Assembly: GCA_015523565.1 (NCBI GenBank)
Contig: WAKA01000097.1
Coordinates: 1-25,301, forward strand
Direction: 5' to 3'
DNA length: 25,301 nucleotides
Origin: Candidatus Heimdallarchaeota archaeon
Lineage (GTDB): Archaea > Asgardarchaeota > Heimdallarchaeia > Heimdallarchaeales > Kariarchaeaceae
The position numbers and the translations under genes were made by a program. Below, piece by piece: positions 1 through 23,428 of the stretch. The notes beneath the pieces were generated by a model. It searched no databases. It had not been told where the DNA came from and was given only the letters and a program-made list of their open reading frames with translations. Within the stretch, counting starts at the first letter, position 1. Every line of letters begins with the position of its first letter.

Positions 1-257
1 GGGAGGGATAAAAGAAGAGAGACGTATTGCCTAATGGAAGCACTTTCCAAGGCTTCCTTTTTATTGTGGTTTTCCAATAATATGGAGCTTTGGGAAGATG
101 TAACTCGTTTTTTTGTTGAGCTCATTTTTTCATACGCCTGCAAAGTCATAATATCCAAATCCAATTGTCTAAAGGGAATTATGAATGGGCAATAAACATG
201 GATTTGTTTACCATTGTCTTTTACTATGAAATTATCAATCAATGATAGGGTGCACAC
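1..257 (-). CDS. Partial hypothetical protein running off the window start
   Basis: Minus-strand frame open from GTG at 257 (alternative downstream ATGs) to the window edge: VCTLSLIDNFIVKDNGKQIHVYCPFIIPFRQLDLDIMTLQAYEKMSSTKKR... Same strand as the upstream gene; no recognisable motif. Confidence 0.35.
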   Translation of the reverse strand, partial: MCTLSLIDNFIVKDNGKQIHVYCPFIIPFRQLDLDIMTLQAYEKMSSTKKRVTSSQSSILLENHNKKEALESASIRQYVSLLLSL

Positions 258-298: not shown

Positions 299-1327
299 TT
301 AGATTTTCATTCGTTCTGCCTCTTTTCTAATCCTTTTTTTGGAGATCATGAAATAGGAACCCCATATGGCAAGAATAATGAATGATCCAAGCATTGGGGA
401 ATTCCCTTTGCTTCTAAGTAGTTCAGACCATTGATCTTTTTTTTCAGGTTGAATTGTGAATCCAAATGATACAATGGATATTATTGCAGGAGAGTTTTTT
501 GCCTCTACTGTAAACTGGAGTTTGTTGATGAATTTCAAATTGGGGAAAAGAATGTTCATGGTATTGTTTTTTGTTTCCGAGGCTTTTTTGACAGAGAATT
601 TATTTATTGTGAAATAAACTTGAAGAGATGTATCTTGTGGATTAAGGAGAGAATATTCCAATGTAATTTCAAGAGACATTGTTTTTGATTGTAATTCACT
701 TGGCAACTCTAAAACAGCATCCATAATTTTAGTCTGAAACAAGACAGATCCAGAAAAGTTTGCATCTAAATTATTGAGACCGTTGATGACATAAGTTGAT
801 GTGGTATTCGGCTTGAAGTTTAAATTCAATCCCCTTTTCATAAATTGACCGATTGTCCAATCCATGGAAATAGTCGTATTCATAATGCCCACACCACCAT
901 TAATTACTTCTGCCACAAGTTTTAGAGTTGCAGTCGATGATGAGGAAAAATAAACAGTCATTTTTTCAAATCCAAAAAGTCTATAGAATGAAACAGGGGA
1001 TGTATTAGGGACAATTTTTTGGTTGCTGACCAATTGGGTGACAGGTTGGTCATTCGAGCTAAGTTCAACAGAACTGAGAAATGCATTCACGGTAATTTTG
1101 GAGGTAATATTTGAAGTGATGAAGAAACGGAACTCTGTGAGTTCTTTCAGTTGGATTGATTTTTCGAAGATTGTTTCAAATGAGCTTTGATTTGCAATAA
1201 TGGAATATGTTTGACTTCCAGATTGGTTGGTGACAAAGCTTAATTCAGAGGTGTTAGAATTAAGAGCATTAAGAGGAGTTACTTGACAGATAAGCAATAT
1301 TAAAAAGACAAAAACGACCTGTTTCAT
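299..1327 (-). CDS. Hypothetical secreted/surface protein with N-terminal signal peptide and C-terminal membrane anchor
   Basis: MKQVVFVFLILLICQVTPLNA signal-like N-terminus; S/T/N-rich beta-type body with many N-x-S/T sequons; C-terminal hydrophobic helix (MLGSFIILAIWGSYFMI) followed by a basic tail (KKRIRK). Confidence 0.75.
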   Translation of the reverse strand: MKQVVFVFLILLICQVTPLNALNSNTSELSFVTNQSGSQTYSIIANQSSFETIFEKSIQLKELTEFRFFITSNITSKITVNAFLSSVELSSNDQPVTQLVSNQKIVPNTSPVSFYRLFGFEKMTVYFSSSSTATLKLVAEVINGGVGIMNTTISMDWTIGQFMKRGLNLNFKPNTTSTYVINGLNNLDANFSGSVLFQTKIMDAVLELPSELQSKTMSLEITLEYSLLNPQDTSLQVYFTINKFSVKKASETKNNTMNILFPNLKFINKLQFTVEAKNSPAIISIVSFGFTIQPEKKDQWSELLRSKGNSPMLGSFIILAIWGSYFMISKKRIRKEAERMKI

Positions 1328-1459: not shown

Positions 1460-4400
1460 TCAATCATCTCCGAAAGAAGAAAGATAAGTGTAAAAAGGAG
1501 TCATTTGTAAAATTTCACCGTTCCAAGATTCGTTTTTCCTTATATAAGAAACAACAGTTCCTTGATGTTCAGATAAGTGCATTAAAGTAAAAGGGGAAAG
1601 GGGATCAAGTTGGTAAGTGGGCAATTGAAAGATATCAAGGAACAATTTCTCAGTGAGAAAATGATATCGATCGTTTAAATCTGAGGGGATTTGAGATAGT
1701 TTTTCATAAACAGGATAACTAGGCAGGACAGAGTTGAGATTGGGGATGAATTTGGTGATTGGAACTTTGAAGAATTGTTTGGAATCGATTCCCAGGAGGA
1801 TAAATGCGTGGGAATTACGGGAAATATCTGCAAGCATTTGGAAGAATTGAAAGAGACGGGTTTTTGTCTGATTATTGTATTGCCCTTCAAACATTGCAGG
1901 AGTCAATTTAGAAAGCTTGTATGATCTAGAGATTACAGCAGCCTTTATTTTCGCATCCAATGATGCAATCAGTTTCTCTTTTTTTAGCCTAAATTTTAAT
2001 TCAGCTTGTTTTTTGAGACTATTATATTCTTTTTGTGAGACATTGTCAATTCCTTCCAAATATAGGTCAAGTTCTCGTTGTATCATTTCTGGAGCTTTGT
2101 TTTCCAACTCAATTATCTGAGATCTTGCTTTTTCCCAAAGATGCAGATAATAATCTTCGTCAGAAAGATTCTTTGCCTCTTCAGGAATATATTCTTCTTT
2201 AATTGCAAGGTGAAATTGTGGAAATACAACAATGCTACCAGGAGGAATTGGAGTAAGTATCTGTTTAAACAATAAGGCAAGACCAGATATTCCAGTAATT
2301 TCTTGGACATCAACAACCTTGATTTTTAACCTTTTTTTCAAGTTATCTGGGGATTTGATACCGCAGGATTTGAGAGCCAAATCAAACATGTTGTTTTGTT
2401 GAAGCCAAATGATTGGAGGGGATGGGGATTTTGTAGTCAGATTCTGTTTTTTTTGCAGATACCGCAATTGAATAAGCTGTAAAAGTATAAAGGGATAAAT
2501 TTCAGAACCACCCATTATGATCTGAAAAGGATTGAGGTTTGAAGAATTCAATAGACTTGTCATTTGATATGTAAAAACACCATCCAAGTAGTTTTGATAG
2601 AATGGATTATTTGATGTATCATTTGAAAGAATTTCAATAGGACCATGGTTTCCCCAAATGGTTAGGCAATAAAAATTGTTTACACGTAAAGATGAAACCC
2701 TCCAGAAATTTTTACCATAGATGGATCGGAATAGTTTTGGAAATTCCTCCCTACGTTGTTCAACAATGACAACAGAATCCTCCCCACCAAAAACAGGTAA
2801 TTGAGAGAGAGGAGTCAATAGAGTCTCTGGAGAAGGATTAAGCATTCTACAGAGTATAGAGGAGGAATGTTCATTATGATTTTTACAAATATCCAAAGAA
2901 ATATGGTTATTGGAGGGAATGCTGGTTTCATCCCAATATTCCTCAAGAACAGCCACTATTTTTTCTGGGAAAAATGAATAAAGAGATTTTAAACTAAACC
3001 TATTGGAACATACCTTGACTTTTCTGGTAACTGCAAGGTAGGCGACAAAATGAAGGAAAGCTACATCGGGATCAATTGATGAGGAATAATAGATTATTGG
3101 ATCTTTCTTATCAATCAATTTTGCAATTTTTGGAGTGATGAAATCAGTGTCAACAGGCATATATTTTTTGGAATAAGAAGACAAAAGGCGGTGTCTCAAA
3201 CGTAAATTTTCAATGTTTTCGACTGTTGCGACAATATCCTGCGGATTGTTTTGAGCCACCAAATTATCAAGAACATGTTGAGGGATCCATTCAGGGATGT
3301 CCTTGTTAAGATGATTGGTAAGTTCGGCGGCTTTTTTCAATTTCTCATTCATTTCATGGACGTTGTCAATTGTTGGGAGTTGGTTGATATCACATGACCA
3401 TTGTTCAGTGATTTTGTCTATTGGATATCGTGAAAAATTAAGAGAGTCAAAAAAGGAAGTTAATTCAGCAGAATTTGAACAGAGCCTCATAATTTTTCGA
3501 TATACGTTAACCACCAATTCGTCATTTTTGGGTCGGTTCAGAACAAGGGACATAAAAGATGGTTTTGATGGCAATTGATAGTCTTGAAGGGATTCAGCAA
3601 CTGCAATAATGGCAAAGACCTCTTCTTCATATTGCAATCCCTTTGGGGAGATATTGAATTTTGTAATGATTTTTGGAATAAGCGTGATGACATCTTTTTT
3701 CGTGACACCAGGAGGCAATGGCATAGCCATGTTTCTGATTATTTCAGCAGCCCCCCTAACAACACCCAATCTCTTCTTTTTGTTTTCAAATTCACCGCCG
3801 GATTTTGCAATGATACCTGATTCTTGAAGTTCATACTTATATTTCAAAATGCCAGTTTCTTTGATGGCCAATATTTTCTTGAGTTCCTCGTTGATATTTT
3901 TTGGAACGATTTGTCCATATCTTTGTGCGTACAAATGCCGAAACATGAAATAGAGGTATTTGGCGATTGTGGATCCTCTTTTTGGTTGGGGTGAATTGGT
4001 CAGCAATTGAAGGAATTTTTGATGGTAATAGTTTTTGTAGTCTTCTTTAAGAACAATCCATGGTTCTTGACTGAATTTTGAAAGTATTTTGAGAACCTTG
4101 TTATTTTCAAGAATTTCCCTTGTCTTCTTTTTATTGTCATGAGTTTTTATTATCCTATCTGCAAATCCTTTGCCCTTGAATTTCACCAGTTGAGAATATT
4201 TCAATTCGGAATGCTTTGTCATCAATTTTTGGTTAACAGCACAACTCAAGGACGGATAATTATCCAAAAAAGAAGTTGCAAATCGTGTTTCATCAAGGCA
4301 GCGTTCATCACCATAAAGCATAGCAAACTCCTTTTTCAGACGGGAGTATTCCGCATCAAGTTCCTTCAAAGTTTTCTCCCTTTTGGAATTTTTTTCTGAC

Positions 4401-4465
4401 CAGTATATAGCAGGAGAAAACAGACCATCATTTTTTTTGGGGTCGCGTGGGTTTAATGCTGACAT
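1460..4465 (-). CDS. 1001-aa multidomain protein: putative TFB-like cyclin repeats plus inactivated RadA/RecA-like domain(s) with a coiled-coil insertion
   Basis: The long ORF is clearly real; the domain call is by-eye alignment only. aa ~85-330 resemble the TFB core. aa ~645-895 follow the RadA ATPase motif order (FQIIMGG / [11 protein letters not shown] / [17 protein letters not shown] / [26 protein letters not shown]) but lack Walker A GKT and Walker B D. Confidence 0.5.
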   Translation of the reverse strand: [1001 protein letters not shown]

Positions 4466-4603: not shown

Positions 4604-4744
4604 TTTTGTCCTAATTTTAGAAAATAGAGAACAGCACATCCATGGCAGGTTTTTGGATTAAAGAAAACAGGAGTTCAGTTTCTTAAATATCATTTTTTGT
4701 TTTTCAATCAGGATCGGAGTATTTTTGTCCTAAAATTAGAAAAT
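4604..4744. promoter_or_regulatory. Pair of 22-bp near-identical dyad-containing repeats (candidate operator sites)
   Basis: TTTTGTCCTAATTTTAGAAAAT at 4604-4625 and TTTTGTCCTAAAATTAGAAAAT at 4723-4744. The cores CTAATTTTAG and CTAAAATTAG are reverse complements. Both lie in the ~510-bp intergenic region upstream of the 1001-aa gene. Confidence 0.45.
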
Positions 4745-4976: not shown

Positions 4977-6257
4977 CTAAGATACTTCAACCAATTCTTT
5001 TTGAGGGAGATTTACAGAATTTGGTGTTTCTATTGCATTTGGATTCTTTAGAAGAGAGCTTTCAGGAATAGGATCACCGAGGTGGTTTAAGATTGGGGAG
5101 TTATCTTTCGGATCCCTGTTCTCCATTTGTTCAGCAATTTTCATAACTTCTTTTGCTTCAGATGGGTCAACAATCCCAAATGGAGTTAGGCAAAATGAAG
5201 ATGTTGTAGGGGGAAGCCATCCACAGTCCACTAGTTTCATTTTTCTTGTTTCAATGCCATTTTCGATGGGCTTGTCTTTTTTAAGCCAAAATCTAAGGTC
5301 AGAAGCATGTCCAACGGTGTCACCTCCTACAGGAATTTCAGATGGTTGGTTCATGACACCACCAATGTTTGCAATGACTTGGTTTGTGTAACATACAATC
5401 AGTTGATATGCTTGTGCAAGAGATTTAAGTTTCATCAAAGCTTGACCAAGCATATTCTGCCTTGCACCCATATTTTTGAGTCCTTCACCAGTTACAGTTT
5501 TAAATTCATTTTTGAAGGGTTGAATGATGGAATCAATGATGATCAACCCGACATCGTTTTCAACGATCATTTTGTCAATGTTTTCAAGGTGTGTCAGCAG
5601 ATCAGATCCTGTGGTGAGAACCCGAGGGCTGACATAAAACATTTTCTTTTCAAAATCGCTTTCGGTAAGTCCCCAATATAACCCGCTTTTGAGGATACGT
5701 TGAACAGAATAGGCACCTTCGGTGTCAAAATAGATGACAGATCGCCCCCAACCACCTTTTTCCTTAGGTAGCATAGTTCTCACTGCAAGATCATACATCC
5801 ATTGGGTTTTTCCCATTTGTGGTTTTCCATAAAACTCAATTAATGTCCCTGACCTGAAACCAAGACCATTTCCGTCATTGAGGTGCCTGTTCAGGGCATG
5901 AACCCTTGTAAGAAGGTACTGATGGTTTTTCGTCATTTCGATTTGTTCTTGGAATGACCTGATGGGTTTGCCTTCAGAGGCAACCACTAATTTGTGGCGA
6001 GCGATTTTCTTTGCAATTTTCAGCGAAACACCATCCAGTTCCACAAGATCGGCGGTACTTTTGTTTTCAAAAGAAGCAAAAGTTTCCAGTCCTTCTTTAA
6101 GGAAAATGTTCTTGATTTTTGTAGCAGTTGTTTTGGCCAAGAGACCTGCATCTTTCATTTCCTCAAAGAACACCTCTGTTGAAGGGCGTTTTGTCCAGAT
6201 GCGGCCATTGTATTCAAAATGAGTTTTAGGGTCGAATTTTTCTTTTTTCTTTCCCAT
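4977..6257 (-). CDS. RadA/Rad51 paralog (second full-length recombinase-family ATPase)
   Basis: N-terminal HhH-like region ([19 protein letters not shown]); Walker A [28 protein letters not shown]; Walker B LIIIDS; L1 [30 protein letters not shown]; C-terminal extension. Confidence 0.9.
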   Translation of the reverse strand: [426 protein letters not shown]

Positions 6258-6314: not shown

Positions 6315-6788
6315 TTATGCAGTCATAAGGTAATCATTAAAAATAACAGGTAATTTAGAAAGGTCTTCTGCGTAAATCGATATTAGTTTCAGTCCCAAAG
6401 CCATATAGATTTTCTTTTTGTTTTCCAATTTTTGGCGATATTCGTCACCAACCTTATTCTTGAGATTTGCCAAACCCCAATACTCAACATAGACATCGAA
6501 ATCGACAAGATAAAAGTCAGTTCTATAGGGGGTTTGTTTAATCGGAATTTCATAGAGGTACCTGATATTGTTCTTTTCCAAGAATTTAGCAATTTGTTTT
6601 TCACCTTTACTTTTGAATTGCCAGTTTTTATGGGGTGAGATTTTACCATAAGGGGAAAAGTATTGCTTAACTGCAAGAGAAGATCCATTGTTTTTTTTTG
6701 TGGGAGACTTATTGATTAATGAAAATGCAACAATGATGAATGCAATCCAAGGGATATATTCAACAATAGGAATAACCAAAATTTCCAC
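6315..6788 (-). CDS. Membrane-anchored PD-(D/E)xK / Vsr-DUF559-like endonuclease-domain protein
   Basis: N-terminal hydrophobic helix (IPWIAFIIVAFSLI), then KSKGEKQIAKFL...YLYE...YRTDFYL...VYVEYWG...Y...K...Y...LISIY, the pattern of small restriction-endonuclease-like domains. Confidence 0.7.
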   Translation of the reverse strand: MEILVIPIVEYIPWIAFIIVAFSLINKSPTKKNNGSSLAVKQYFSPYGKISPHKNWQFKSKGEKQIAKFLEKNNIRYLYEIPIKQTPYRTDFYLVDFDVYVEYWGLANLKNKVGDEYRQKLENKKKIYMALGLKLISIYAEDLSKLPVIFNDYLMTA

Positions 6789-7107
6789 CTATGAAAATGG
6801 TTTGCAGTTCAGAGAGTAAATCTAGTTCATCATTTTTTGTCAAGATCAATAGCCTTAGTGAGTCCAACAGATTTTTAATTGACCTATGATCACTAAGTGA
6901 CAATGGGGTGGTTCGAAACTTGAGGACTGAAGCCTTGATTTTGTATTCAGTGATTGGAAATACCTCAATCAAGTGCAAAAGGATAAATCGGAGGACTGGT
7001 TCATCGAATTTGCTACCTACAAGAGACAAAGAGTATGGAAATTCAACCTCGTGAAGAGGAATTGGAGAAGCCAAGATATTTGAAATCTTTCCAACAGAAA
7101 AATGCAT
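6760..7107 (-). CDS. Hypothetical protein
   Basis: 115-aa ATG ORF overlapping the start of the nuclease gene by 29 bp; fills the space up to the divergent promoter region; no recognised motif. Confidence 0.55.
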   Translation of the reverse strand: MHFSVGKISNILASPIPLHEVEFPYSLSLVGSKFDEPVLRFILLHLIEVFPITEYKIKASVLKFRTTPLSLSDHRSIKNLLDSLRLLILTKNDELDLLSELQTIFIGGNFGYSYC

Positions 7108-7160
7108 GAAAATGAGAGGAGATTTAGATTTTTAAATGAGAACGAAAGCTAATAACGGGA

Positions 7161-7168
7161 TTTAAATA
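7161..7168 (+). promoter_or_regulatory. Probable archaeal TATA box for the OB-fold/PCNA/GINS operon
   Basis: TTTAAATA lies 23-30 bp upstream of the ATG at 7191, the spacing expected for a leaderless or short-leader archaeal transcript. Confidence 0.45.
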
Positions 7169-7190
7169 AGCAAAACAAAAAGGGGTTCAG

Positions 7191-7556
7191 ATGGAAGACG
7201 AAGAGCAGTTTCAGCAACAAAAACCAGCAAGGGATTATTTTTTAAGGGAGCTAGAAAATGTTGAGGCGGGTATGGTTCGATTGTGGGGGTATATTGTTGC
7301 ATTGAATTCCTATTCATTCGTGCTCAATGATGGAGAAACACAAGTAGAAATAGAATATGGAAATCTGCGATCATCAGAAATTGTATTGCAGAATCCGTAC
7401 AGAATTATTTGTGAAGTGATTAAATCAGACAAAGGTAAAAGGTTAATTGCATTGGTCATGCACAAGATGTTACCAGAAGAAATTGCGAAATACAAGTCAA
7501 TAGTGGAATTAGAGAGGAGAATTCCGATTCCGGACAGTAATTCCATAAAAATTTGA
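7191..7556 (+). CDS. Small OB-fold protein, RPA14/RPA32-like ssDNA-binding subunit
   Basis: VRLWGYIV...SFVLNDGETQVEI...YRIICEV...LIA strand pattern followed by a C-terminal helix, typical of small RPA subunits; first gene of the PCNA-GINS run. Confidence 0.65.
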   Translation: MEDEEQFQQQKPARDYFLRELENVEAGMVRLWGYIVALNSYSFVLNDGETQVEIEYGNLRSSEIVLQNPYRIICEVIKSDKGKRLIALVMHKMLPEEIAKYKSIVELERRIPIPDSNSIKI

Positions 7557-7610
7557 GTCATAGACATGAAATTATTAAAGAGTATAAATTATGATGGTAG
7601 GAGAGACCAT

Positions 7611-8393
7611 ATGGCACTTGAAGCAGTATTACCCACACCAAAAACATTGAGAACGTTATTAGAGCCAATCCCACAGAATATTAGTGAAGGGATTACACTA
7701 GAGTTCAACGAGAAAGGATTGCATTTACAGACTGCCATGGAAGGGTTAGTTTGGGCAATTGAGGAAAAAATCGCGGCGAAAGAATTTGAGAGATATGAGA
7801 TTTCCCATAACCAACACTTCCATTTGAATTTGAAGGAGTTGACAGATTTCCTCAAGACAGCAGATGCAGCAGATACACTTCATATTTCGTTGGATGAGGA
7901 AAACGGGATAATGGTGTTCAAACTTGTCAAGAAGCAGATGGTCAAAGAAATAGACCTAAGGCTTTTAGGAACAGCAGATGAGTATAAATTTAGGGAATTG
8001 ATCAATCTTCAAACCAAATTGGAAGCAAGCCTTGTGATATCAACAAGATTGTTTGCAGAGGCAATGCAGATTTCTTCATTGGGAGGAACACATGTAACAT
8101 TGACCATGTCAAAAGACAGATTGAAATTGGAGTCTAGGGGCACTACGAAGAGCACAAAGACAGAAATCGACTTTGAAAATGAAGAGGTCAGTAATGTAAG
8201 ATTTGAAGCTACAAGTGAAGAAGTGTCAGCTACCTTTGCAATGGATTATATCAAAAATCTGACAAAGTTTTCAAAGATACAAGACCATATGTTGTTATGT
8301 TTTGGGAATAACAAACCAGTGCTTGCGATTTTTGAATTTGCGGAAGAAGCGGGATATGCCGCGATTGCCATAGCACCCAGATCCGCAACTTAG
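7611..8393 (+). CDS. pcn: DNA polymerase sliding clamp PCNA (divergent)
   Basis: About 260 aa from ATG 7611 (GGAGAG upstream); EFNEKGLHLQ, EFERYE, LNLKELTDFLK, VSATFAMDYI, FGNNKPV, C-terminal IAPR; adjacent to GINS. Confidence 0.92.
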   Translation: MALEAVLPTPKTLRTLLEPIPQNISEGITLEFNEKGLHLQTAMEGLVWAIEEKIAAKEFERYEISHNQHFHLNLKELTDFLKTADAADTLHISLDEENGIMVFKLVKKQMVKEIDLRLLGTADEYKFRELINLQTKLEASLVISTRLFAEAMQISSLGGTHVTLTMSKDRLKLESRGTTKSTKTEIDFENEEVSNVRFEATSEEVSATFAMDYIKNLTKFSKIQDHMLLCFGNNKPVLAIFEFAEEAGYAAIAIAPRSAT

Positions 8394-8404
8394 CAGTGAT
8401 TTAA

Positions 8405-8956
8405 ATGCTATTTGACAAGATTTTGAATGTTTGGAGAAGAGAAAGAGTTGAAAAAGACCTTGTTGCAGTCGAGGTAAATTTTTTTGAGAAAGTCAGGACT
8501 TATTTGAAGCACTTGGAAACAATGGCAACAAGTGATGAGGATGAGATTGTTCGAAAAATATTCAATCGGAGGTTTCAGCGACTGAATTTTTTAGTCAATG
8601 ATTTAATAAAGTTAAGAATGGAAAAACATTTCCGTGATATAATAAAAGGAAAATCCAAACCAAAAAAGTTGCCAATAGAAGAGGAAATGTTTCGAGAGAA
8701 GCTGAACCATATAATTAGGTTACATCAGGATGCGATTTTAGGTATTACACCCACAACACAAGAAATTTCAGAGACTGAGATAGAAGAAAGATATGAGTTT
8801 TGCATATTCCTTGAAAACGAGGGGAACGAAGTGGTTGGAGTTGATCTTCACACCTATGGTCCATTCAAGAAAGGCGATATAGTTTTGATGCCTTTGGAGA
8901 ACATCAAGCATTATGTCCGTCGATCAAAAGTGAAATTATTAAATTTGAAGATTTAA
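8405..8956 (+). CDS. gins51: GINS complex subunit Gins51 (Sld5/Psf1-like)
   Basis: Helical A domain (NFFEKVRTYL...LIKLRMEK) followed by the B-domain motif VVGVDLHTYGPFKKGDIVLMP; directly downstream of PCNA, as in the conserved archaeal cluster. Confidence 0.88.
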   Translation: MLFDKILNVWRRERVEKDLVAVEVNFFEKVRTYLKHLETMATSDEDEIVRKIFNRRFQRLNFLVNDLIKLRMEKHFRDIIKGKSKPKKLPIEEEMFREKLNHIIRLHQDAILGITPTTQEISETEIEERYEFCIFLENEGNEVVGVDLHTYGPFKKGDIVLMPLENIKHYVRRSKVKLLNLKI

Positions 8957-11830: not shown

Positions 11831-13285
11831 TTACCGGGGAACCCCTTCTGAAGCCCACTTTTTCAGTAGATCAACCACTTCTTTTTTCTTATCAAGAGGC
11901 TTACCGATATATCCATATATTTTGCTTAATCCAATACTTCCCAAAACCTCATAGGCTTCATCCATATCACACACAGAACTAATTCGATCATGGAAATTCT
12001 TTGTTGAAGTGGCTTCATCAATGAATTCTGCAAAAAGAGTCAGGACTTTTTTCGTGTTCTCATCCACTTTTGGAGTTTCTTTTTTAACGGGAGTTCTTTT
12101 TGGCTTGGAAACAGTTTTTGGCTCTTCCTCAACTTTTTTTGCCTCTTCTTCAACTTTTTCCTCCTCTTCTTCAATCTCAGAGCCTATTTTAGAGAAGGTT
12201 GATTTTGATACAGAAATGGGAGCAGGTTCTTTTTTAATTGGTTTCTCTTTTATTTCAGGTTCAGTTGATTTTTCATCCTCTTCTTCGGGAACAGGAGAAA
12301 TAGGCTTTGGTTTGTTGGCTTCAATCTTTCTTCGCCTTGCCAAGAACTCAGACGGTTTAATCCAACCTTCAGTGATGGGAGTATCCTCTTTACTCCCATC
12401 CTCCTTTTTCATTTGATCAACTTCAGATGATGAAGCACTGGTTGAGCGTTCCATGGGTTTGGGAGAAACAGGCGCAGGAGAGGGGGCTCCGCTTTCCACA
12501 GGCTTCGAAGCAACAGGGGTGGGAGAAGGAGCTCCGCTTTCCACAGGCTTCGAAGCAACAGGGGCGGGAGAGGGGGCTCCGCTTTCCACAGGCTTCGAAA
12601 CAACAGGGGAAGAAGAAGGAATCTCATGTTCTTTGCTTTCTTGGGAGGATATTTTTGATTCTAAAAGATCGATGAATTCCTTGATAGCCTCCTTAAAATC
12701 ATCGGGATCAAAATTATAATTTTCAGGATCTGAAAGGGCAAGTGACAGCTCATCAATTAAAGGGAGGAAAAAATCCATTAGGTTCTCATGTTCTGCCATG
12801 ATAAGTTTAAGACCATTTATTATTGTAGTAACTGAACGGGTAACAGAATTTTGAAGATCATCAAAGTCTTCTTCAGATAAGGAGGTTGTTTCTTGGGCCA
12901 TCAGCATCAATTGTTGCCTGAGAGCTTCAACTTCAGAATCAAGGAGTTCAGATTTGCTTTCAAGAGTTACTTTTTCTTCGGAATATCGTTTGACTTCTTC
13001 CCCTAAAGACTCCAGTCTATCATTTGCTTCCTTTAGTCTTTTTTTCAGTTCTTCGACTTCAGCACCTTTTTTTTCAAGTTCATTGACCAAGTGCTCGTTT
13101 TTTAGTTTTTCAGCGTTTGTTTTTTCCTCTAGTTTTTCCTTGAGCTTTTCAAATGCCTTAATTCTCCTCATTGCCAATTGAGGGCTCATTTTTTCTTTTT
13201 TCATATAATTTACAATGAAAATGACGTCAGCAGGGTCGATATTGTTATCTAGAAGCAATTTCTCCAATGATTGTCCTTCAGACAT
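11831..13285 (-). CDS. Coiled-coil protein with a Pro/Ser/Glu-rich disordered linker and a small C-terminal helical domain
   Basis: Heptad-rich aa ~40-135; low-complexity region with tandem repeats; globular-looking C-terminus (KKVLTLFAEFI...LLKKWASEGVPR). Confidence 0.8.
   Translation of the reverse strand: MSEGQSLEKLLLDNNIDPADVIFIVNYMKKEKMSPQLAMRRIKAFEKLKEKLEEKTNAEKLKNEHLVNELEKKGAEVEELKKRLKEANDRLESLGEEVKRYSEEKVTLESKSELLDSEVEALRQQLMLMAQETTSLSEEDFDDLQNSVTRSVTTIINGLKLIMAEHENLMDFFLPLIDELSLALSDPENYNFDPDDFKEAIKEFIDLLESKISSQESKEHEIPSSSPVVSKPVESGAPSPAPVASKPVESGAPSPTPVASKPVESGAPSPAPVSPKPMERSTSASSSEVDQMKKEDGSKEDTPITEGWIKPSEFLARRRKIEANKPKPISPVPEEEDEKSTEPEIKEKPIKKEPAPISVSKSTFSKIGSEIEEEEEKVEEEAKKVEEEPKTVSKPKRTPVKKETPKVDENTKKVLTLFAEFIDEATSTKNFHDRISSVCDMDEAYEVLGSIGLSKIYGYIGKPLDKKKEVVDLLKKWASEGVPR
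12467..12609. repeat. Intragenic 45-bp tandem repeat, 3 copies plus a partial copy, encoding SKPVESGAPSP(A/T)PV(A/S)
   Basis: AACAGG unit starts at 12467, 12512, 12557 and 12602; the core GCTCCGCTTTCCACAGGCTTCGAA is identical in the three full copies. Confidence 0.95.
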
Positions 13286-13400: not shown

Positions 13401-14420
13401 TTGAGTATGCTTGAGTGGCAAATTGTTGTTGACTCACATACACATATTTTACCAGCAAAGCTTCCAGATTTTGCAAAGAAATTCGGGTATGGGAATTTTC
13501 TGAATTACCGACCAAAGATAGGCAAGATGGACATATATCTTGGAAAAAAGTATTATAGCACTATTGAACCAAATTTTTTTGATGTAGCGACACGTTTGAG
13601 TGAAGCTGAGGAGCAAGGAGTTGAAATACAGGTAATTAGTCCACCGTCTGTGATGTTTGCCTATTGGGCAAAACCAAAAGATACGTTAGAAGTTGCGAGA
13701 TACCTAAACAATGACATTGCAAAGAAAGTGCAAGCATATCCAAGCAGGTTTGTTGGTTTGGGGACAATTCCAATTCAGGATCCAGAATTGGCATTAGAGG
13801 AAATGGACAGATGCATTAAAGATTTAGAGCTTCGAGGCATCATTATTGGATCCAACTATAAAGGAAAATATTTGGGGGATGACTTTTTCAAACCCATATT
13901 TGAACGAGCGAACGAATTAGGGATTTCAATTTTTGTCCATCCGCTACCGCTTCAACAGGAGAAATTGACTAGACAGGCATTATTTGACCTATCCATAATC
14001 TCGGTTGACATATCAAAGAGCATTATTTCCATGATAATCAATGGAACCATGGATCAATTCACCAATATTAGATTTGCTTTTGGGAATGCAGGAGGGGCAT
14101 TTCCTTATTTAATAGATAGACTTGAACAGTTGATCAGAAGCCAACCATCTTTAGTGGGAAGTCTTCTGAATAAGCAACCAATAAGTTATTTGGGAAAATT
14201 TTGGGTAGATACAGAAATTCAGAATCCGAAACTGTTGGATTTTGTTATTTCAATGGTTGGAGAGGATAAGGTGATGTTGGGAAGCGGATATCCGCTATCT
14301 GCAAATTCATGGATTGGTGGAATGATTGAGGAAAGAATAGTACCAGAAAGTGTTAAAGCAAAAATCTTAGGAGAAAATGGCATGAAATGGTTAAATTTAC
14401 CAAAATCGTATTTCTTTTAA
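13401..14420 (+). CDS. ACMSD-like amidohydrolase (aminocarboxymuconate-semialdehyde decarboxylase homolog) with a degenerate active site
   Basis: DSHTHILP...PDFAKKFGYG, VMFAYWAKPKDTL, RFVGLGTIPIQDPELA and IFVHP closely match ACMSD. However, FAHGGG is FGNAGG here and GTDYP is GSGYP. Confidence 0.85.
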   Translation: MSMLEWQIVVDSHTHILPAKLPDFAKKFGYGNFLNYRPKIGKMDIYLGKKYYSTIEPNFFDVATRLSEAEEQGVEIQVISPPSVMFAYWAKPKDTLEVARYLNNDIAKKVQAYPSRFVGLGTIPIQDPELALEEMDRCIKDLELRGIIIGSNYKGKYLGDDFFKPIFERANELGISIFVHPLPLQQEKLTRQALFDLSIISVDISKSIISMIINGTMDQFTNIRFAFGNAGGAFPYLIDRLEQLIRSQPSLVGSLLNKQPISYLGKFWVDTEIQNPKLLDFVISMVGEDKVMLGSGYPLSANSWIGGMIEERIVPESVKAKILGENGMKWLNLPKSYFF

Positions 14421-15907: not shown

Positions 15908-17167
15908 ATGAGCATTGCAACTTTGGAATACGCAGAGCAGATGGATAAACAGGACAAGATAAAACAATTCAGGGATAGGTTTTTTATTCCAAAAACAATT
16001 GAAGGGGAAGAAGTAATATATTTCTGTGGGAATTCATTAGGGTTACAACCAAAAGAGGTATCATCAATTATTGATGAAGAGTTGGAGTCATGGAGAAATA
16101 ATGCGGTAAAAGGGCATTTTCAAGGAACAAAGTGGGCAACAATGCATGAAGAGGTTGCATCATTGTCAGCACCGATTATTGGGGCGAAAAAAGAGGAAAT
16201 CGCCATCATGAATACATTAACTGTAAATCTGCATTTATTGATGGTATCATTTTACAGGCCGACTCAAAAAAGACATAAGGTTTTGATAGAATCTGATGCA
16301 TTTCCAAGTGACAAATATGCGATTAAATCACAAATAAAATACCATGGATTTGATCCAGCTGAATCACTCATCGAAGTAAGACCAAAACAAAAAGGGGAAG
16401 TACTTGATCAAGAGCTGATTTTTGACGCAATTGCAAAAGCGGGAGATGAACTTGCCCTCATATTAATCGGAGGGATAAACTATTATACAGGTCAAATTTT
16501 TGATATGGAGAAAATCACAAGAAAGGGGCATGAGGTAGGGGCTGTTGTGGGATTTGATTTGGCACATGCTTTTGCAAATATCCCATTGCATTTGCATGAT
16601 TGGGATGTGGATTTTGCAGCTTGGTGCAATTATAAATATGCAAATGGTGGTCCAGGGGCAATTGCAGGCATATTTATTCATGAAAAGCATTTTGGGAAAA
16701 GCCTTCCGAGATTTGAAGGATGGTGGGGGAATAGAAAAGAAACCAGATTTTTGATGAAAGATGACATTGAACCTGCACAAGGTGCAGAAGGTTGGCAAAT
16801 TTCGAATGCACCAACATTGTCCTTAGCTCCATTGAAGGGGTCTCTTAAGATAATCAATGAAGCAGGAATGGAAAACCTTCGCAGAAAAAGCATTGAATTA
16901 ACAGGGTATTTGTCATCTCTTATATCCCAAATTGGAGATGAGAGAGTTTATGTGACCCCAACAGATCCAAATGAAAGAGGATGTCAAATCAGCATCCATA
17001 TCAAGGAAAATGGGAAAACGTTATTTGAAAAGATTTCAAAAAGAGGGGTAATTTGTGATTGGAGGGAACCTGATGTTATTAGGGTGGCACCAACACCACT
17101 TTATAATACGTTTAGAGAAGTTTTTAATTTTTATCGGATTTTCAAAGAGGAATTGGAAACACTCTAA
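15908..17167 (+). CDS. kynU: Kynureninase
   Basis: YFCGNSLGLQP, MNTLTVNLHLLMVSFYRPT, FPSD, FDLAHA, WCNYKYANGGPG (PLP Lys), GWWG, RGCQ, DWREP, RVAPTPLYN. Confidence 0.97.
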   Translation: MSIATLEYAEQMDKQDKIKQFRDRFFIPKTIEGEEVIYFCGNSLGLQPKEVSSIIDEELESWRNNAVKGHFQGTKWATMHEEVASLSAPIIGAKKEEIAIMNTLTVNLHLLMVSFYRPTQKRHKVLIESDAFPSDKYAIKSQIKYHGFDPAESLIEVRPKQKGEVLDQELIFDAIAKAGDELALILIGGINYYTGQIFDMEKITRKGHEVGAVVGFDLAHAFANIPLHLHDWDVDFAAWCNYKYANGGPGAIAGIFIHEKHFGKSLPRFEGWWGNRKETRFLMKDDIEPAQGAEGWQISNAPTLSLAPLKGSLKIINEAGMENLRRKSIELTGYLSSLISQIGDERVYVTPTDPNERGCQISIHIKENGKTLFEKISKRGVICDWREPDVIRVAPTPLYNTFREVFNFYRIFKEELETL

Positions 17168-18939: not shown

Positions 18940-19938
18940 TTAGTTTTTTTCATAAACAATTTTAAGTGCGATGGGTTTTGCCAACCTTTCATCGGATACA
19001 AATATTTTCTCACCTTCAGCCAATGTCATGGTATCATTATCAGTTAATATTTTGCCCTTAGACATAAGAATTGGGGAGGCAAGTCCTAGAGCGAGGGCAA
19101 TTCGATGTCTGAGGTCTTTTACCAGCTCATTTTCAAATGCCAAAATTTCTTGGGTTTCAACGTTGAATTTGGTGCCACACATGGGACAATTTTCGTTTCT
19201 TTTCAATTTTATTGTAGTAAATGCGCCATGTAAACCATCATAGAACAGATAGTTCTGAATAGGTTTGCCAATGCCCATAATTAATTTGATTAGTTCTTGT
19301 GACATCAGACCACCGATTATAGAGGAGAGGGTTGAAACAGAAGGTATAGGGGGTTCGGTTTTTTCTTCGAGAAGATCCTTTCTTGCGTCACCCAAAGGAG
19401 AACAAGCCTGAGAAAGTTTTTCTTGAGAAATCAGAGGTTGACATTCAAAACAGGGAGTTTCATAGGGAATGATGGTCTGAACATTTCCTAAAAATCCATA
19501 CATTCCACCGCTTACCATGGGTTTTCTTTCTCTAACAGCAAGTGAATTGGCCCATCTTCTGCCCCTGAACGTATCCAAACAAGAAGCAATTGCAGACACA
19601 TCTGCAAGTTGGGCACTGGTCAATTTCCTCATATCTTTTGGAAAAGGGACAATTTGTACGTCGGGATTGAGCATTCTCAATTTTTCAGCAGCTACATCCG
19701 CTTTATTTTTACCAACATCGTCTATTGAGAATAGCAATTGACGATTGAGATTACTCATTTCAATTGTATCAAAATCAACTAAAGTCAACTTACCAATGCC
19801 TGCAAGGGTAAGGTTTGTAGATACATAGGTTCCAAGGGCACCCACCCCCAAAACAAGGACGTGTGAGGAAGAAAATAATTCCTGATTCCATTCAGGCATT
19901 AATTTTTGACGGTGATACCTATCAGAAGTTAAGTCCAT
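18940..19938 (-). CDS. Ubiquitin-activating enzyme E1 (ThiF family, Uba3-like, with C-terminal ubiquitin-fold domain)
   Basis: RYHRQ, VLVLGVGALG, DFDTIEMSNLNRQLLF, KA, CLD, PCFEC, putative catalytic Cys in QACS, CPMCG; C-terminal ~75-aa domain ending LAEGEKIFVSDERLAKPIALKIVY. Likely start is ATG 19938. Confidence 0.9.
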   Translation of the reverse strand: MDLTSDRYHRQKLMPEWNQELFSSSHVLVLGVGALGTYVSTNLTLAGIGKLTLVDFDTIEMSNLNRQLLFSIDDVGKNKADVAAEKLRMLNPDVQIVPFPKDMRKLTSAQLADVSAIASCLDTFRGRRWANSLAVRERKPMVSGGMYGFLGNVQTIIPYETPCFECQPLISQEKLSQACSPLGDARKDLLEEKTEPPIPSVSTLSSIIGGLMSQELIKLIMGIGKPIQNYLFYDGLHGAFTTIKLKRNENCPMCGTKFNVETQEILAFENELVKDLRHRIALALGLASPILMSKGKILTDNDTMTLAEGEKIFVSDERLAKPIALKIVYEKN

Positions 19939-20173
19939 AACCACCTTCAGTACGTGTAATTAAATAACATTTATCACCGTCAACCATTCCAATTGTCTTT
20001 ATTGTTTCACTATCATCTAGTTGCTGTCCCCTGAAAACAACAATAACAGTGCTGGCAGGGATTCTTTTCTGTTTTGCAACCATTGATTTTACTTTAGCAA
20101 TAGTGTCATGGGGCTCTACGTCAAGAACAATTGGAGCACCCCCTCCAATAGCAGAAACTACTTCGATTTTCAT
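19922..20173 (-). CDS. Eukaryote-type ubiquitin-like protein precursor (Gly-Gly followed by a YGLNF propeptide)
   Basis: IVLDVEPHDTIAKVK...IP...VVFRGQQLDD..TI...TRTEGG aligns with ubiquitin ITLEVEPSDTIENVK...IP...LIFAGKQLED..TL...LRLRGG. Confidence 0.93.
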   Translation of the reverse strand: MKIEVVSAIGGGAPIVLDVEPHDTIAKVKSMVAKQKRIPASTVIVVFRGQQLDDSETIKTIGMVDGDKCYLITRTEGGYGLNF

Positions 20174-22144: not shown

Positions 22145-23428
22145 TTATTCAGATGAATAAAGTCCATTTGGAGTGATCTCAAAAACAGCCTCATTTTCAC
22201 CAAGAACAGGGCTATCAAATACACGAATTACTCTTTTCTCACCTTTTGATTTCCTTAGGTAAAAACGTGTGCCTGCCCAATGCCCCATGATGTTGCCGCC
22301 GACTGCTGTGGTTGGATCACCAAAGAATTGGGCTGGATTTGCCTGAACTTGGTTGGTGACAACAACAGCCACATTATAGGTATCTGCAAGCCTGTGAAGG
22401 CTGTTCAGGTGGGCATTGAGGATCTGTTGCCTTTCTGCGAGCGTCCCCCTTCCAGCATACTCTGCTCTGAAATGAGCCGTAACCGAGTCAACTATGACAA
22501 TTCCATATTCTTCAGGATCTTGACTCATCATTTCTAAAAGTTTAATGGCAATTGCCTGTTGAACATCGCTATTTTTTGCTCTTGCATACATTACGTCTTT
22601 CAATATTTCCTTGGTATCCTTTTTCCATCCTTTTTCTTGCTTGAACCTTTCTGCAATTTGCATTATTCGTGCAGGTGAAAAAGTTCCTTCTGTATCAATA
22701 TAGATTGCTTTTTTGCCTAAGCCACCCAATTCAACAGGAAGTTGGACTGTCACGGCAAGTTGGTGGCAAAGTTGTGATTTTCCGGATCTGAATGCTCCAA
22801 AAAACTCATATGTTTCCCCTGCCCTGATGCCACCATTACCAAGTTCAGGGATAAAGGTAAGGGTATCAAGGGATTCAATACCAAAAGTGAATGATTGAGA
22901 TGTCCTTTGTTTTTCCAAAACTTCCAAGGCATTAGTGAAAAATCCGCCCCTGATATTTTCGGCGATATATGCTTGATATTTCATGGCTGCATTTGCAGTC
23001 AATCCATATCGTTCTTCCAATTCCTTGACAGGGGTCGTTTCCAAAAGACCAACACTTATCCCTTTTTCACGGAGGGCTTTTGCAGTTGTTGGTCCAATTC
23101 CTTCAATGTCCTCAAGACTGAGTTCCTCCTTGTAATCAGGAAATTCATCAGGAAAAAGGTCATGAATTGTAGCACGCAATTTTTTAGCGGCAGGACGAGT
23201 GATCCCCAAATTTTCTAGTTCAGCAAGTTTTTTCTGCATAAGATCATAAGGAGAGTGAATTCCTCCCTCTTCGAGTAGTTTTGCAGTTTTAGGGCCTAAT
23301 CCAGGGACATCAAGTAACCTCATAGATTTGGAGGAAAATGTCTTCTTCTCTTTTTCAGTTGGTTCCAATGCATCGATGGGATTTCCAGCTTCGATGACAA
23401 CTGCTTCTGCATCTGATTTCTTTGCCAT
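22145..23428 (-). CDS. radA: DNA repair and recombination protein RadA with duplicated N-terminal HhH domain
   Basis: GAFRSGKSQLCHQLAVTVQLP, YIDTEGTF, IVDSVTAHFRAEYAGRGTLAERQQ, TNQV, GGNIMGH; FTNA polymerisation motif; two HhH units (VPGLGPKTA and IEGIGPTTA). Confidence 0.95.
   Translation of the reverse strand: MAKKSDAEAVVIEAGNPIDALEPTEKEKKTFSSKSMRLLDVPGLGPKTAKLLEEGGIHSPYDLMQKKLAELENLGITRPAAKKLRATIHDLFPDEFPDYKEELSLEDIEGIGPTTAKALREKGISVGLLETTPVKELEERYGLTANAAMKYQAYIAENIRGGFFTNALEVLEKQRTSQSFTFGIESLDTLTFIPELGNGGIRAGETYEFFGAFRSGKSQLCHQLAVTVQLPVELGGLGKKAIYIDTEGTFSPARIMQIAERFKQEKGWKKDTKEILKDVMYARAKNSDVQQAIAIKLLEMMSQDPEEYGIVIVDSVTAHFRAEYAGRGTLAERQQILNAHLNSLHRLADTYNVAVVVTNQVQANPAQFFGDPTTAVGGNIMGHWAGTRFYLRKSKGEKRVIRVFDSPVLGENEAVFEITPNGLYSSE

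Follow-up and report, generated by a model that had tools for sequence, protein, structure and literature searches.

A Predicted Disabled RecA-Fold Tandem with a Helical Arm, Joined to a TFIIB/Cyclin-Like Fold, Beside a RadA Paralog in Heimdallarchaeia

Introduction

What is the role of a protein with a disabled RecA fold that is encoded beside an intact recombinase? The question is raised by P0001, a gene of the Heimdallarchaeia, one of the lineages closest to eukaryotes. Known dead RecA folds serve as mediators of recombination (Shu, the RAD51 paralogs), as polymerase accessories (iRadA, ImuA) or as hubs (Elp4-6, BcsE). The original prediction compared part of P0001 with the inactive Rad51-fold mediators. 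The folds, the loss of motifs, the arm, the fusion and fission of the gene and its neighborhood, as described below, are supported by structure prediction and comparison.

Literature searches returned no description of the P0001 protein or its cluster. Nor did they return a dead RecA fold that carries an arm of 100 aa at L1 or is connected to a TFIIB/cyclin fold. The architecture of a TFIIB-like fold, a tandem pseudo-ATPase and an L1 arm is undescribed in the literature searched, while RecA-fold pseudo-ATPase adaptors are already known. The case bears on the regulation of recombination and DNA exchange in Asgard archaea, and on the TFIIB-type folds that were turned to regulation (cyclins, Rb).

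The Gene and Its Family

The features are collected in Table 1, with positions counted in the window, meaning the whole stretch of 25,301 nucleotides that was analyzed. All segments quoted in the original prediction are present in the P0001 reading frame, with their order kept. The protein and its alignments had no match in scans of Pfam, PDB sequences and PADLOC, and no transmembrane segment was found in P0001. Pairwise BLAST against the neighboring RadA returned nothing, a scan of metagenome contigs gave no relative, and a shape search with the P0001 region reached a best TM below 0.5. A feature search proposed a DUF3638/DEAD SF2 helicase (score 0.90). This candidate was rejected, as structure searches put RecA-superfamily cores first, with SF2 helicase absent from the top 50.

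Table 1. Positions of the features of the P0001 locus in the window
Feature	Position	Strand	Remarks
HerA/VirB4-like protein, start	3..257	(-)	~1030 aa, without Walker A; continues on contig C116
342-aa protein	299..1327	(-)	N-terminal hydrophobic segment, conserved C-terminus
P0001, whole gene	1460..4465	(-)	1001 aa; predicted TFIIB/cyclin-like double fold and tandem degenerate RecA-fold domains
D2, predicted dead RecA-fold domain, aa ~620-996	1478..2608	(-)	VIA-align Z 12-13, ~190 residues; motifs lost
Helical arm, aa ~761-859	1889..2185	(-)	after Walker B strand and short helix, at L1 position; helices from model
D1, predicted compact degenerate RecA-like domain, aa ~440-619	2609..3148	(-)	without Walker A; strand/helix order in model
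Two predicted cyclin-fold repeats, aa ~111-344	3434..4135	(-)	TFIIB/Brf1-like, no zinc ribbon; VIA-align, Foldseek
15-bp motif (AAAWTYAGGACAAAA), two copies	4604-4618, 4723-4737	(-)	upstream of TATA-like box ~4552-4559
Extra RadA paralog	4977..6257	(-)	intact Walker A/B and catalytic Glu; Pfam Rad51 2e-36
Membrane-anchored PD-(D/E)XK-like nuclease	6315..6788	(-)	157 aa; PADLOC PD-DEXK model E 8e-14; N-terminal hydrophobic segment

Among 400 genomes of the phylum, four besides that of the host have homologs of P0001, all of them in the host's family, and further homologs are metagenomic proteins. Apart from metagenomes, the family was found only in two genera of a single Heimdallarchaeia family. 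Across the homologs, the C-terminal half (C-half) has 16-38% identity to P0001. The C-half was not detected by profile in G004, G006, G008, G011 and G013 or in the other 395 phylum genomes searched, the family genomes in this search being 63-94% complete.

The N- and C-halves are fused in five cases: G000, G001, G002, where the fusion was joined across a contig break, G007 and P0015. In G003 and at locus L013 the N-half is the abutting upstream gene of the C-half. At L015 one gene lies between the split halves, and this gene (6551-8020) is coiled-coil and of low complexity. Locus L012 begins at the C-half gene. In G006 and G008 the N-half occurs without a detected C-half and is divergent from polB (L084 3083-4594 and L025 1249-2877, respectively), and for this reason the tandem looks like an add-on to the cyclin-fold half. 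A further short cyclin-fold copy is present in G006 (L122 8479-9099). As judged by fusion and fission, no other partner accompanies the dead tandem as constantly as the cyclin-fold module.

The Disabled RecA Fold

The C-half was modeled with AlphaFold2 over aa 440-1001, using an 11-row alignment, and the model reached pLDDT 85.9 and pTM 0.80. Domain D2 of this model superposes on RadA, RecA, KaiC and FlaH with Z 12-13 and rmsd 3.5-4. The individual values are close together: RadA 5qub gave Z 13.1 over 189 residues at rmsd 3.5, BcsE-NTD 12.6-13.0, KaiC CI 12.2-12.5, RAD51C-XRCC3 12.3 and FlaH 12.2, with Elp456 at 9.5-10.6. Up to the Walker B strand and a short helix, the elements succeed one another as in RecA. 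The insert follows, and then a helix, a strand and a C-terminal beta meander. By its predicted fold, an alpha/beta core with a C-terminal beta meander, D2 is a member of the RecA superfamily. The original prediction had made its case depend on a RecA-type topology in the predicted structure, and that topology is present (aa ~620-996, Z 12-13). It had drawn the domain at aa ~640-895. The RecA fold was upheld but its extent was not, as the domain reaches aa ~996 (nt ~1478).

The P-loop position of D2 is reduced to G-G/D with a helix immediately after it, and GK[ST] occurs in no homolog at this position. A GK[ST] pattern in P0014 was considered as a Walker A motif and rejected, as it sits in a strand of D1, away from the P-loop. 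The position of the Walker B Asp is Pro749 in P0001; it is Pro in seven of the ten rows and never Asp. At the position of the catalytic Glu, which is unconserved, P0001 has Asn691, while three of eight homologs have E/D. The claim that the Walker A Lys, the catalytic Glu and the Walker B Asp are all lost is correct for P0001 itself, and for the Lys and the Asp it extends to every homolog, but the Glu position still holds E/D in those three.

The by-eye alignment with RadA that had been put forward was recovered in its register by hhalign, but the likeness is within chance (P 1.5%, score 21.8 against a shuffled maximum of 29.6). A profile comparison with the insert removed had also been proposed. 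With aa 762-859 taken out, hhalign pairs the flanks with RadA in that same register. As the aligned sequences by themselves do not exceed chance, the assignment of a RecA fold to D2 rests on structure.

The Helical Arm at L1

Removal of the arm lets hhalign close the gap to RadA and to a RadB-like protein. Since the flanks then pair with RadA, the insert is placed at the position of L1. A charged helical insert at L1 had been expected at aa ~760-865, and the model places aa ~761-859 there as helical. The helices span 762-766, 769-789, 791-803 and 811-853 and are modeled at pLDDT 85-96, and the first half of the arm is acidic. The insert had been called a coiled coil of ~100 aa. Its helical nature and its length hold, but a coiled coil is unproven: the long helix shows no clear regular heptad, and “helical arm” is therefore the preferred term. 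The arm is 102-110 aa long in all ten homolog rows that cover it, a constant length despite homologs that are only ~20% identical. Conservation in the arm (22%) equals that in the core (20-26%). The arm is probably used for protein contacts.

Relationship to Known RecA-Fold Families

Domain D1 bears on the choice of family. The region aa 440-619 is predicted to be another compact domain, its elements in a RecA-like order, and on this account KaiC comes first in a Foldseek search with the whole C-half, as the top family (E 5e-6) with both domains covered. The C-half aligned with the KaiC tandem over 322-345 residues at an rmsd of ~9. It is suggested, less securely than the fold of D2, that the C-half is a KaiC-like tandem in which D2 is the second domain after D1. 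Profile comparisons of D1 with D2 and with KaiC/RadA gave no signal. GvpD is counted among the KaiC-like archaeal ATPases. KaiC and its archaeal relatives (FlaH, PH0284, SSO2452) share with P0001 the tandem of two RecA-fold domains and a tie to the regulation of surface systems (PMC4858521). P0001 differs from KaiC in its lack of Walker motifs in either domain, its 100-aa L1 arm and its fused cyclin-fold module. Neither PF06745 nor intact ATPase motifs, the marks of the KaiC family, were found in P0001 and its alignments.

When D2 is considered on its own, RadA/Rad51, KaiC CI, FlaH, UvsX, RecA and BcsE-NTD all lie within 1 Z unit as matches. Beside the value given above for RadA, the hhalign probability was 2.7% for the RadB-like protein and 0.03% for a KaiC-like one, and the Pfam Rad51 model had no match in P0001 or its alignments. 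Taken without the arm, D2 has its best profile match in the RadB-like gene of a sister family, but marginally so, with a score of 23.3 where shuffled sequences reached 22.0 at most. This small RadB-like ATPase (L117 3935-4522, L120 3112-4128) belongs to a cluster analogous to that of P0001, in 20 of 22 sister-family genomes, and could be the ancestor of the dead domain or its functional counterpart. Also encoded in that cluster are a giant surface protein, a protein of ~1050 aa, an SF2 helicase and a RadA paralog. A layout resembling that of contig C116, which continues the P0001 cluster, was confirmed in two genomes of the sister family.

The original prediction had described a dead RadA/RecA fold with an arm likely to serve in protein contacts. 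The dead RecA fold and the long insert stand, but descent from RadA in particular was not established, as the RecA-fold families are tied structurally and the sequence likeness to RadA is within chance. Nor was a mediator role like that of Shu and other Rad51 paralogs established. The domain appears to be the second of a KaiC-like tandem, and its constant partner, fused or adjacent, is the TFIIB/cyclin-fold module, not RadA. The Rad51/RadA paralogs (RAD51C, XRCC3, RadB, Shu) and Elp4-6 are alike in having a RecA core with a degenerate ATPase site (Z 10-13, Elp456 lower), and P0001 adjoins an intact RadA. P0001 is unlike them in its tandem, in the absence of an HhH domain, in an arm in place of L1 and in the lack of a significant sequence link.

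The N-Terminal Half

VIA-align of aa 111-344 gave Brf1 with Z 9.3 (209 residues aligned, rmsd 10.3), TFIIB with 8.2 and the p107 pocket with 7.5, with cyclins also among the best matches, where a Z of 8-9 for a helical half such as this one is within the caution range of the program. One repeat matched a repeat of archaeal TFB with Z 7.2 and rmsd 3.0. The top rows in Foldseek were TFIIB and cyclins, with weak E of at least 0.13. No homolog examined has the CxxC of a zinc ribbon, PF00382 has no match at the P0001 locus, and the hhalign score against a TFB profile lies inside the shuffled null. The N-half is predicted, with moderate confidence, to be a double fold of the TFIIB/cyclin type that lacks the zinc ribbon. 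Two ordinary TFBs are encoded elsewhere in the host genome. Cyclin folds with non-transcriptional functions exist, as in cyclins, the Rb pocket and ORC6.

A parallel in setting is found with TFB3 of the Sulfolobales and the Ced/Ups DNA-exchange systems, where a divergent TFB paralog is connected with repair and membrane genes as well as HerA/VirB4-like ones (PMC6101594, PMC9905601). It has been reported that TFB3 activates the ups and ced genes (PMC6101594). In TFB3 the zinc ribbon is retained and the C-terminal HTH is missing. P0001, in contrast, has both cyclin repeats, no ribbon and a fused pseudo-ATPase, and the HerA-like gene of its cluster is without Walker A, unlike those of the TFB3-linked systems. 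In archaeal pilus loci, KaiC-like ATPases and TFIIB homologs are predicted regulators (PMC4858521).

The Gene Neighborhood

The extra RadA is directly upstream of P0001 in the four genomes of the genus and at L015, while G007 has it on a separate contig and with a different gene downstream of it. Its close orthologs are found in exactly the five P0001-bearing genomes. It keeps an HhH domain, and its polymerization motif has changed from FxxA to IxxF (here IRSF) in all five aligned orthologs. The PD-(D/E)XK-like nuclease lies upstream of this RadA paralog; it is present in G001 and was not seen at that position in G003.

In all homologous loci long enough to show it, the gene of the 342-aa protein is the next one downstream, and the conserved C-terminus of the protein probably anchors to the membrane. 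The HerA-like gene then follows in G000, G001, G003 and G007, and comes one gene later in L013. HerA/VirB4-like proteins of this type range from ~1030 to 1100 aa and have orthologs in the same five genomes, and one ortholog carries the features DUF87/TraG/TrwB. Positions 1-347 of the window overlap the end of contig C116 of G000 over 347 bp, at 96% identity with small indels, which suggests that the two contigs are strain variants. Contig C116 continues the cluster with the HerA/VirB4-like gene, PolB, an XPD/DinG helicase and membrane proteins, and similar gene sets occur in G001, G002, G003, G007 and L015. The cluster PolB, encoded several genes from P0001, has intact motifs (DFASLYP, YGDTD, FDIE). 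Contigs C116, C204 and C222 of G000 encode family B polymerases, of which two have intact motifs and one is degenerate. HerA/VirB4-like paralogs without a recognizable Walker A also occur in or near the cluster (L081 10426-13503, L081 1-2295, L082 802-3369), and G001 has a second HerA/VirB4-like copy on another contig.

Upstream of P0001, the two copies of the 15-bp motif form a candidate operator pair, as judged from the sequence. Twin copies 112-126 bp apart precede the TATA-like box of the ortholog in three genomes (L011 7049/7161, L003 1173/1299 and the window). Genome-wide, 13 occurrences were found against 6-13 in shuffles, and the motif marks no regulon or other genes beyond chance.

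Proposed Role

P0001 probably serves a gene cluster of DNA exchange and repair as a unit for docking and control. The explanation that is favored, at somewhat less than an even chance, is that its C-half is a nucleotide-blind scaffold or interaction module, which tethers or controls the TFIIB-like module and docks on a cluster product through the arm. Promoter action, the partner of the arm and a role in DNA exchange are what we infer beyond the structural results. The nucleotide-binding motifs of D2 are lost, and since the 100-aa arm takes the place of the L1 loop, D2 would not bind ssDNA in the manner of a recombinase. The cyclin repeats would act at the promoters of the cluster, either as an alternative TFB or as a competitor of TFB. 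The dead tandem may hold, mask or localize the TFIIB-like module, with the arm as a docking surface that links this module to the dead HerA/VirB4-like protein or to the extra RadA. In this way, the state of the machinery would bear on the expression of the exchange and repair genes.

The tethering scaffold is consistent with the fold and the loss of motifs, with KaiC as the top Foldseek family over both domains and with the constant length of the arm. The cyclin-fold half is always fused or near wherever the two halves were found together, and the RadA paralog is not adjacent in G007. The cluster combines RadA, PolB, XPD/DinG, HerA-like and membrane genes. There are precedents in TFB3 (PMC6101594), in the regulators of pilus loci (PMC4858521) and in BcsE-NTD (PMC7439463). 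However, the TFIIB assignment is moderate, with no zinc ribbon and no match to TFB at the level of sequence, cyclin folds also serve outside transcription, and the twin motif marks no regulon in the host genome. The halves that are naturally split in G003 are two soluble proteins with which the central claim could be tested.

A transcription switch has been considered as well, in which a ribbon-less TFIIB/cyclin factor would be under the control of the KaiC-like pseudo-ATPase. The L1 arm would sense the assembly of recombinase or DNA-transfer machinery, and cell-to-cell DNA exchange would be coupled to its own expression. This is unlikely, though far from negligible.

A mediator of the Rad51-paralog type would cap or seed filaments of the neighboring RadA paralog with its dead domain and recruit other factors with its arm. 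The structures that tie as best matches of D2 include RadA/Rad51 cores, hhalign recovers the RadA register, and the RadB-like gene of the sister-family cluster is the best, if marginal, profile match. The RadA paralog adjoins P0001 in the four genomes of the genus and L015 and co-occurs with it in the same five genomes, and its IxxF motif hints at a non-standard partner. Yet the sequence signal is not significant, the adjacency is lost in G007, and the tandem is fused to a cyclin fold, whereas mediators are single-domain proteins. An arm at L1 would also be expected to point at the DNA axis of the filament. A mediator is doubtful on this evidence.

About as improbable is a structural cytoplasmic subunit of a membrane machine for DNA transfer or secretion, resembling BcsE and working with the dead HerA/VirB4-like and membrane proteins, in which the cyclin fold would serve for interaction only. 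The N-terminal domain of BcsE, from cellulose secretion in E. coli, is a tied top structural match and a dead RecA fold at the hub of a membrane-linked operon, and it oligomerizes and binds a transcription antitermination factor (PMC7439463). It differs from P0001 in that it is a single domain with a c-di-GMP sensor attached and has no arm, so that only the fold is common. A membrane-targeted gene is downstream in every locus that reaches it, with the HerA-like gene next, and both ATPase-like proteins are without Walker A, as in a purely structural assembly. Against such a subunit, P0001 has no transmembrane segment, and no motor with intact motifs was recognized among the adjacent HerA-like genes. 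P0001 also has a TATA-like box and a twin upstream motif to itself, which would be more in keeping with a regulator, where such elements are often found.

It is very unlikely that P0001 is an accessory subunit of the cluster PolB, like iRadA or ImuA in a mutasome-type complex. Inactive RadA homologs do bind PolB2 (PMC11791011), and polB is in the cluster of G000, G001, G007 and L015. iRadA shares with P0001 an inactive RadA fold and a location near a family B polymerase (PMC11791011), but it is a small, single-domain protein encoded with PPB2 and PolB2. The cluster PolB does not resemble PolB2, as its motifs for polymerase and exonuclease are intact. No small gene like PPB2 was recognized, and no PIP box was found. 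At this position polB was unseen in G002 and G003, though both keep the P0001 protein. A decaying remnant or a chance resemblance without function, suggested by the narrow distribution and the lack of any family with a significant sequence match, is barely credible and already largely refuted by conservation, given the open frames, the constant lengths of domain and arm at ~20% identity and the confident fold.

Other Genes in the Window

The host genome has five RadA-family genes. The canonical RadA, with two HhH domains, is encoded at 22145-23428 (-) of the window and at C156:49223-50542 of G000. An operon of a small gene, PCNA and GINS51 (7191-8956, (+)) is divergent from the cluster, a link that is kept in G001 and was unseen in G003. 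A coiled-coil protein (11831-13285, (-)) contains a 14-aa Pro-rich repeat (PVASKPVESGAPSP) three to four times. As identified by eye, genes of an ACMSD-like amidohydrolase and a kynureninase (13401-14420 and 15908-17167, (+)) belong to the kynurenine pathway, and a ubiquitin-like gene lies beside an E1/ThiF-like gene (18940-20173, (-)).
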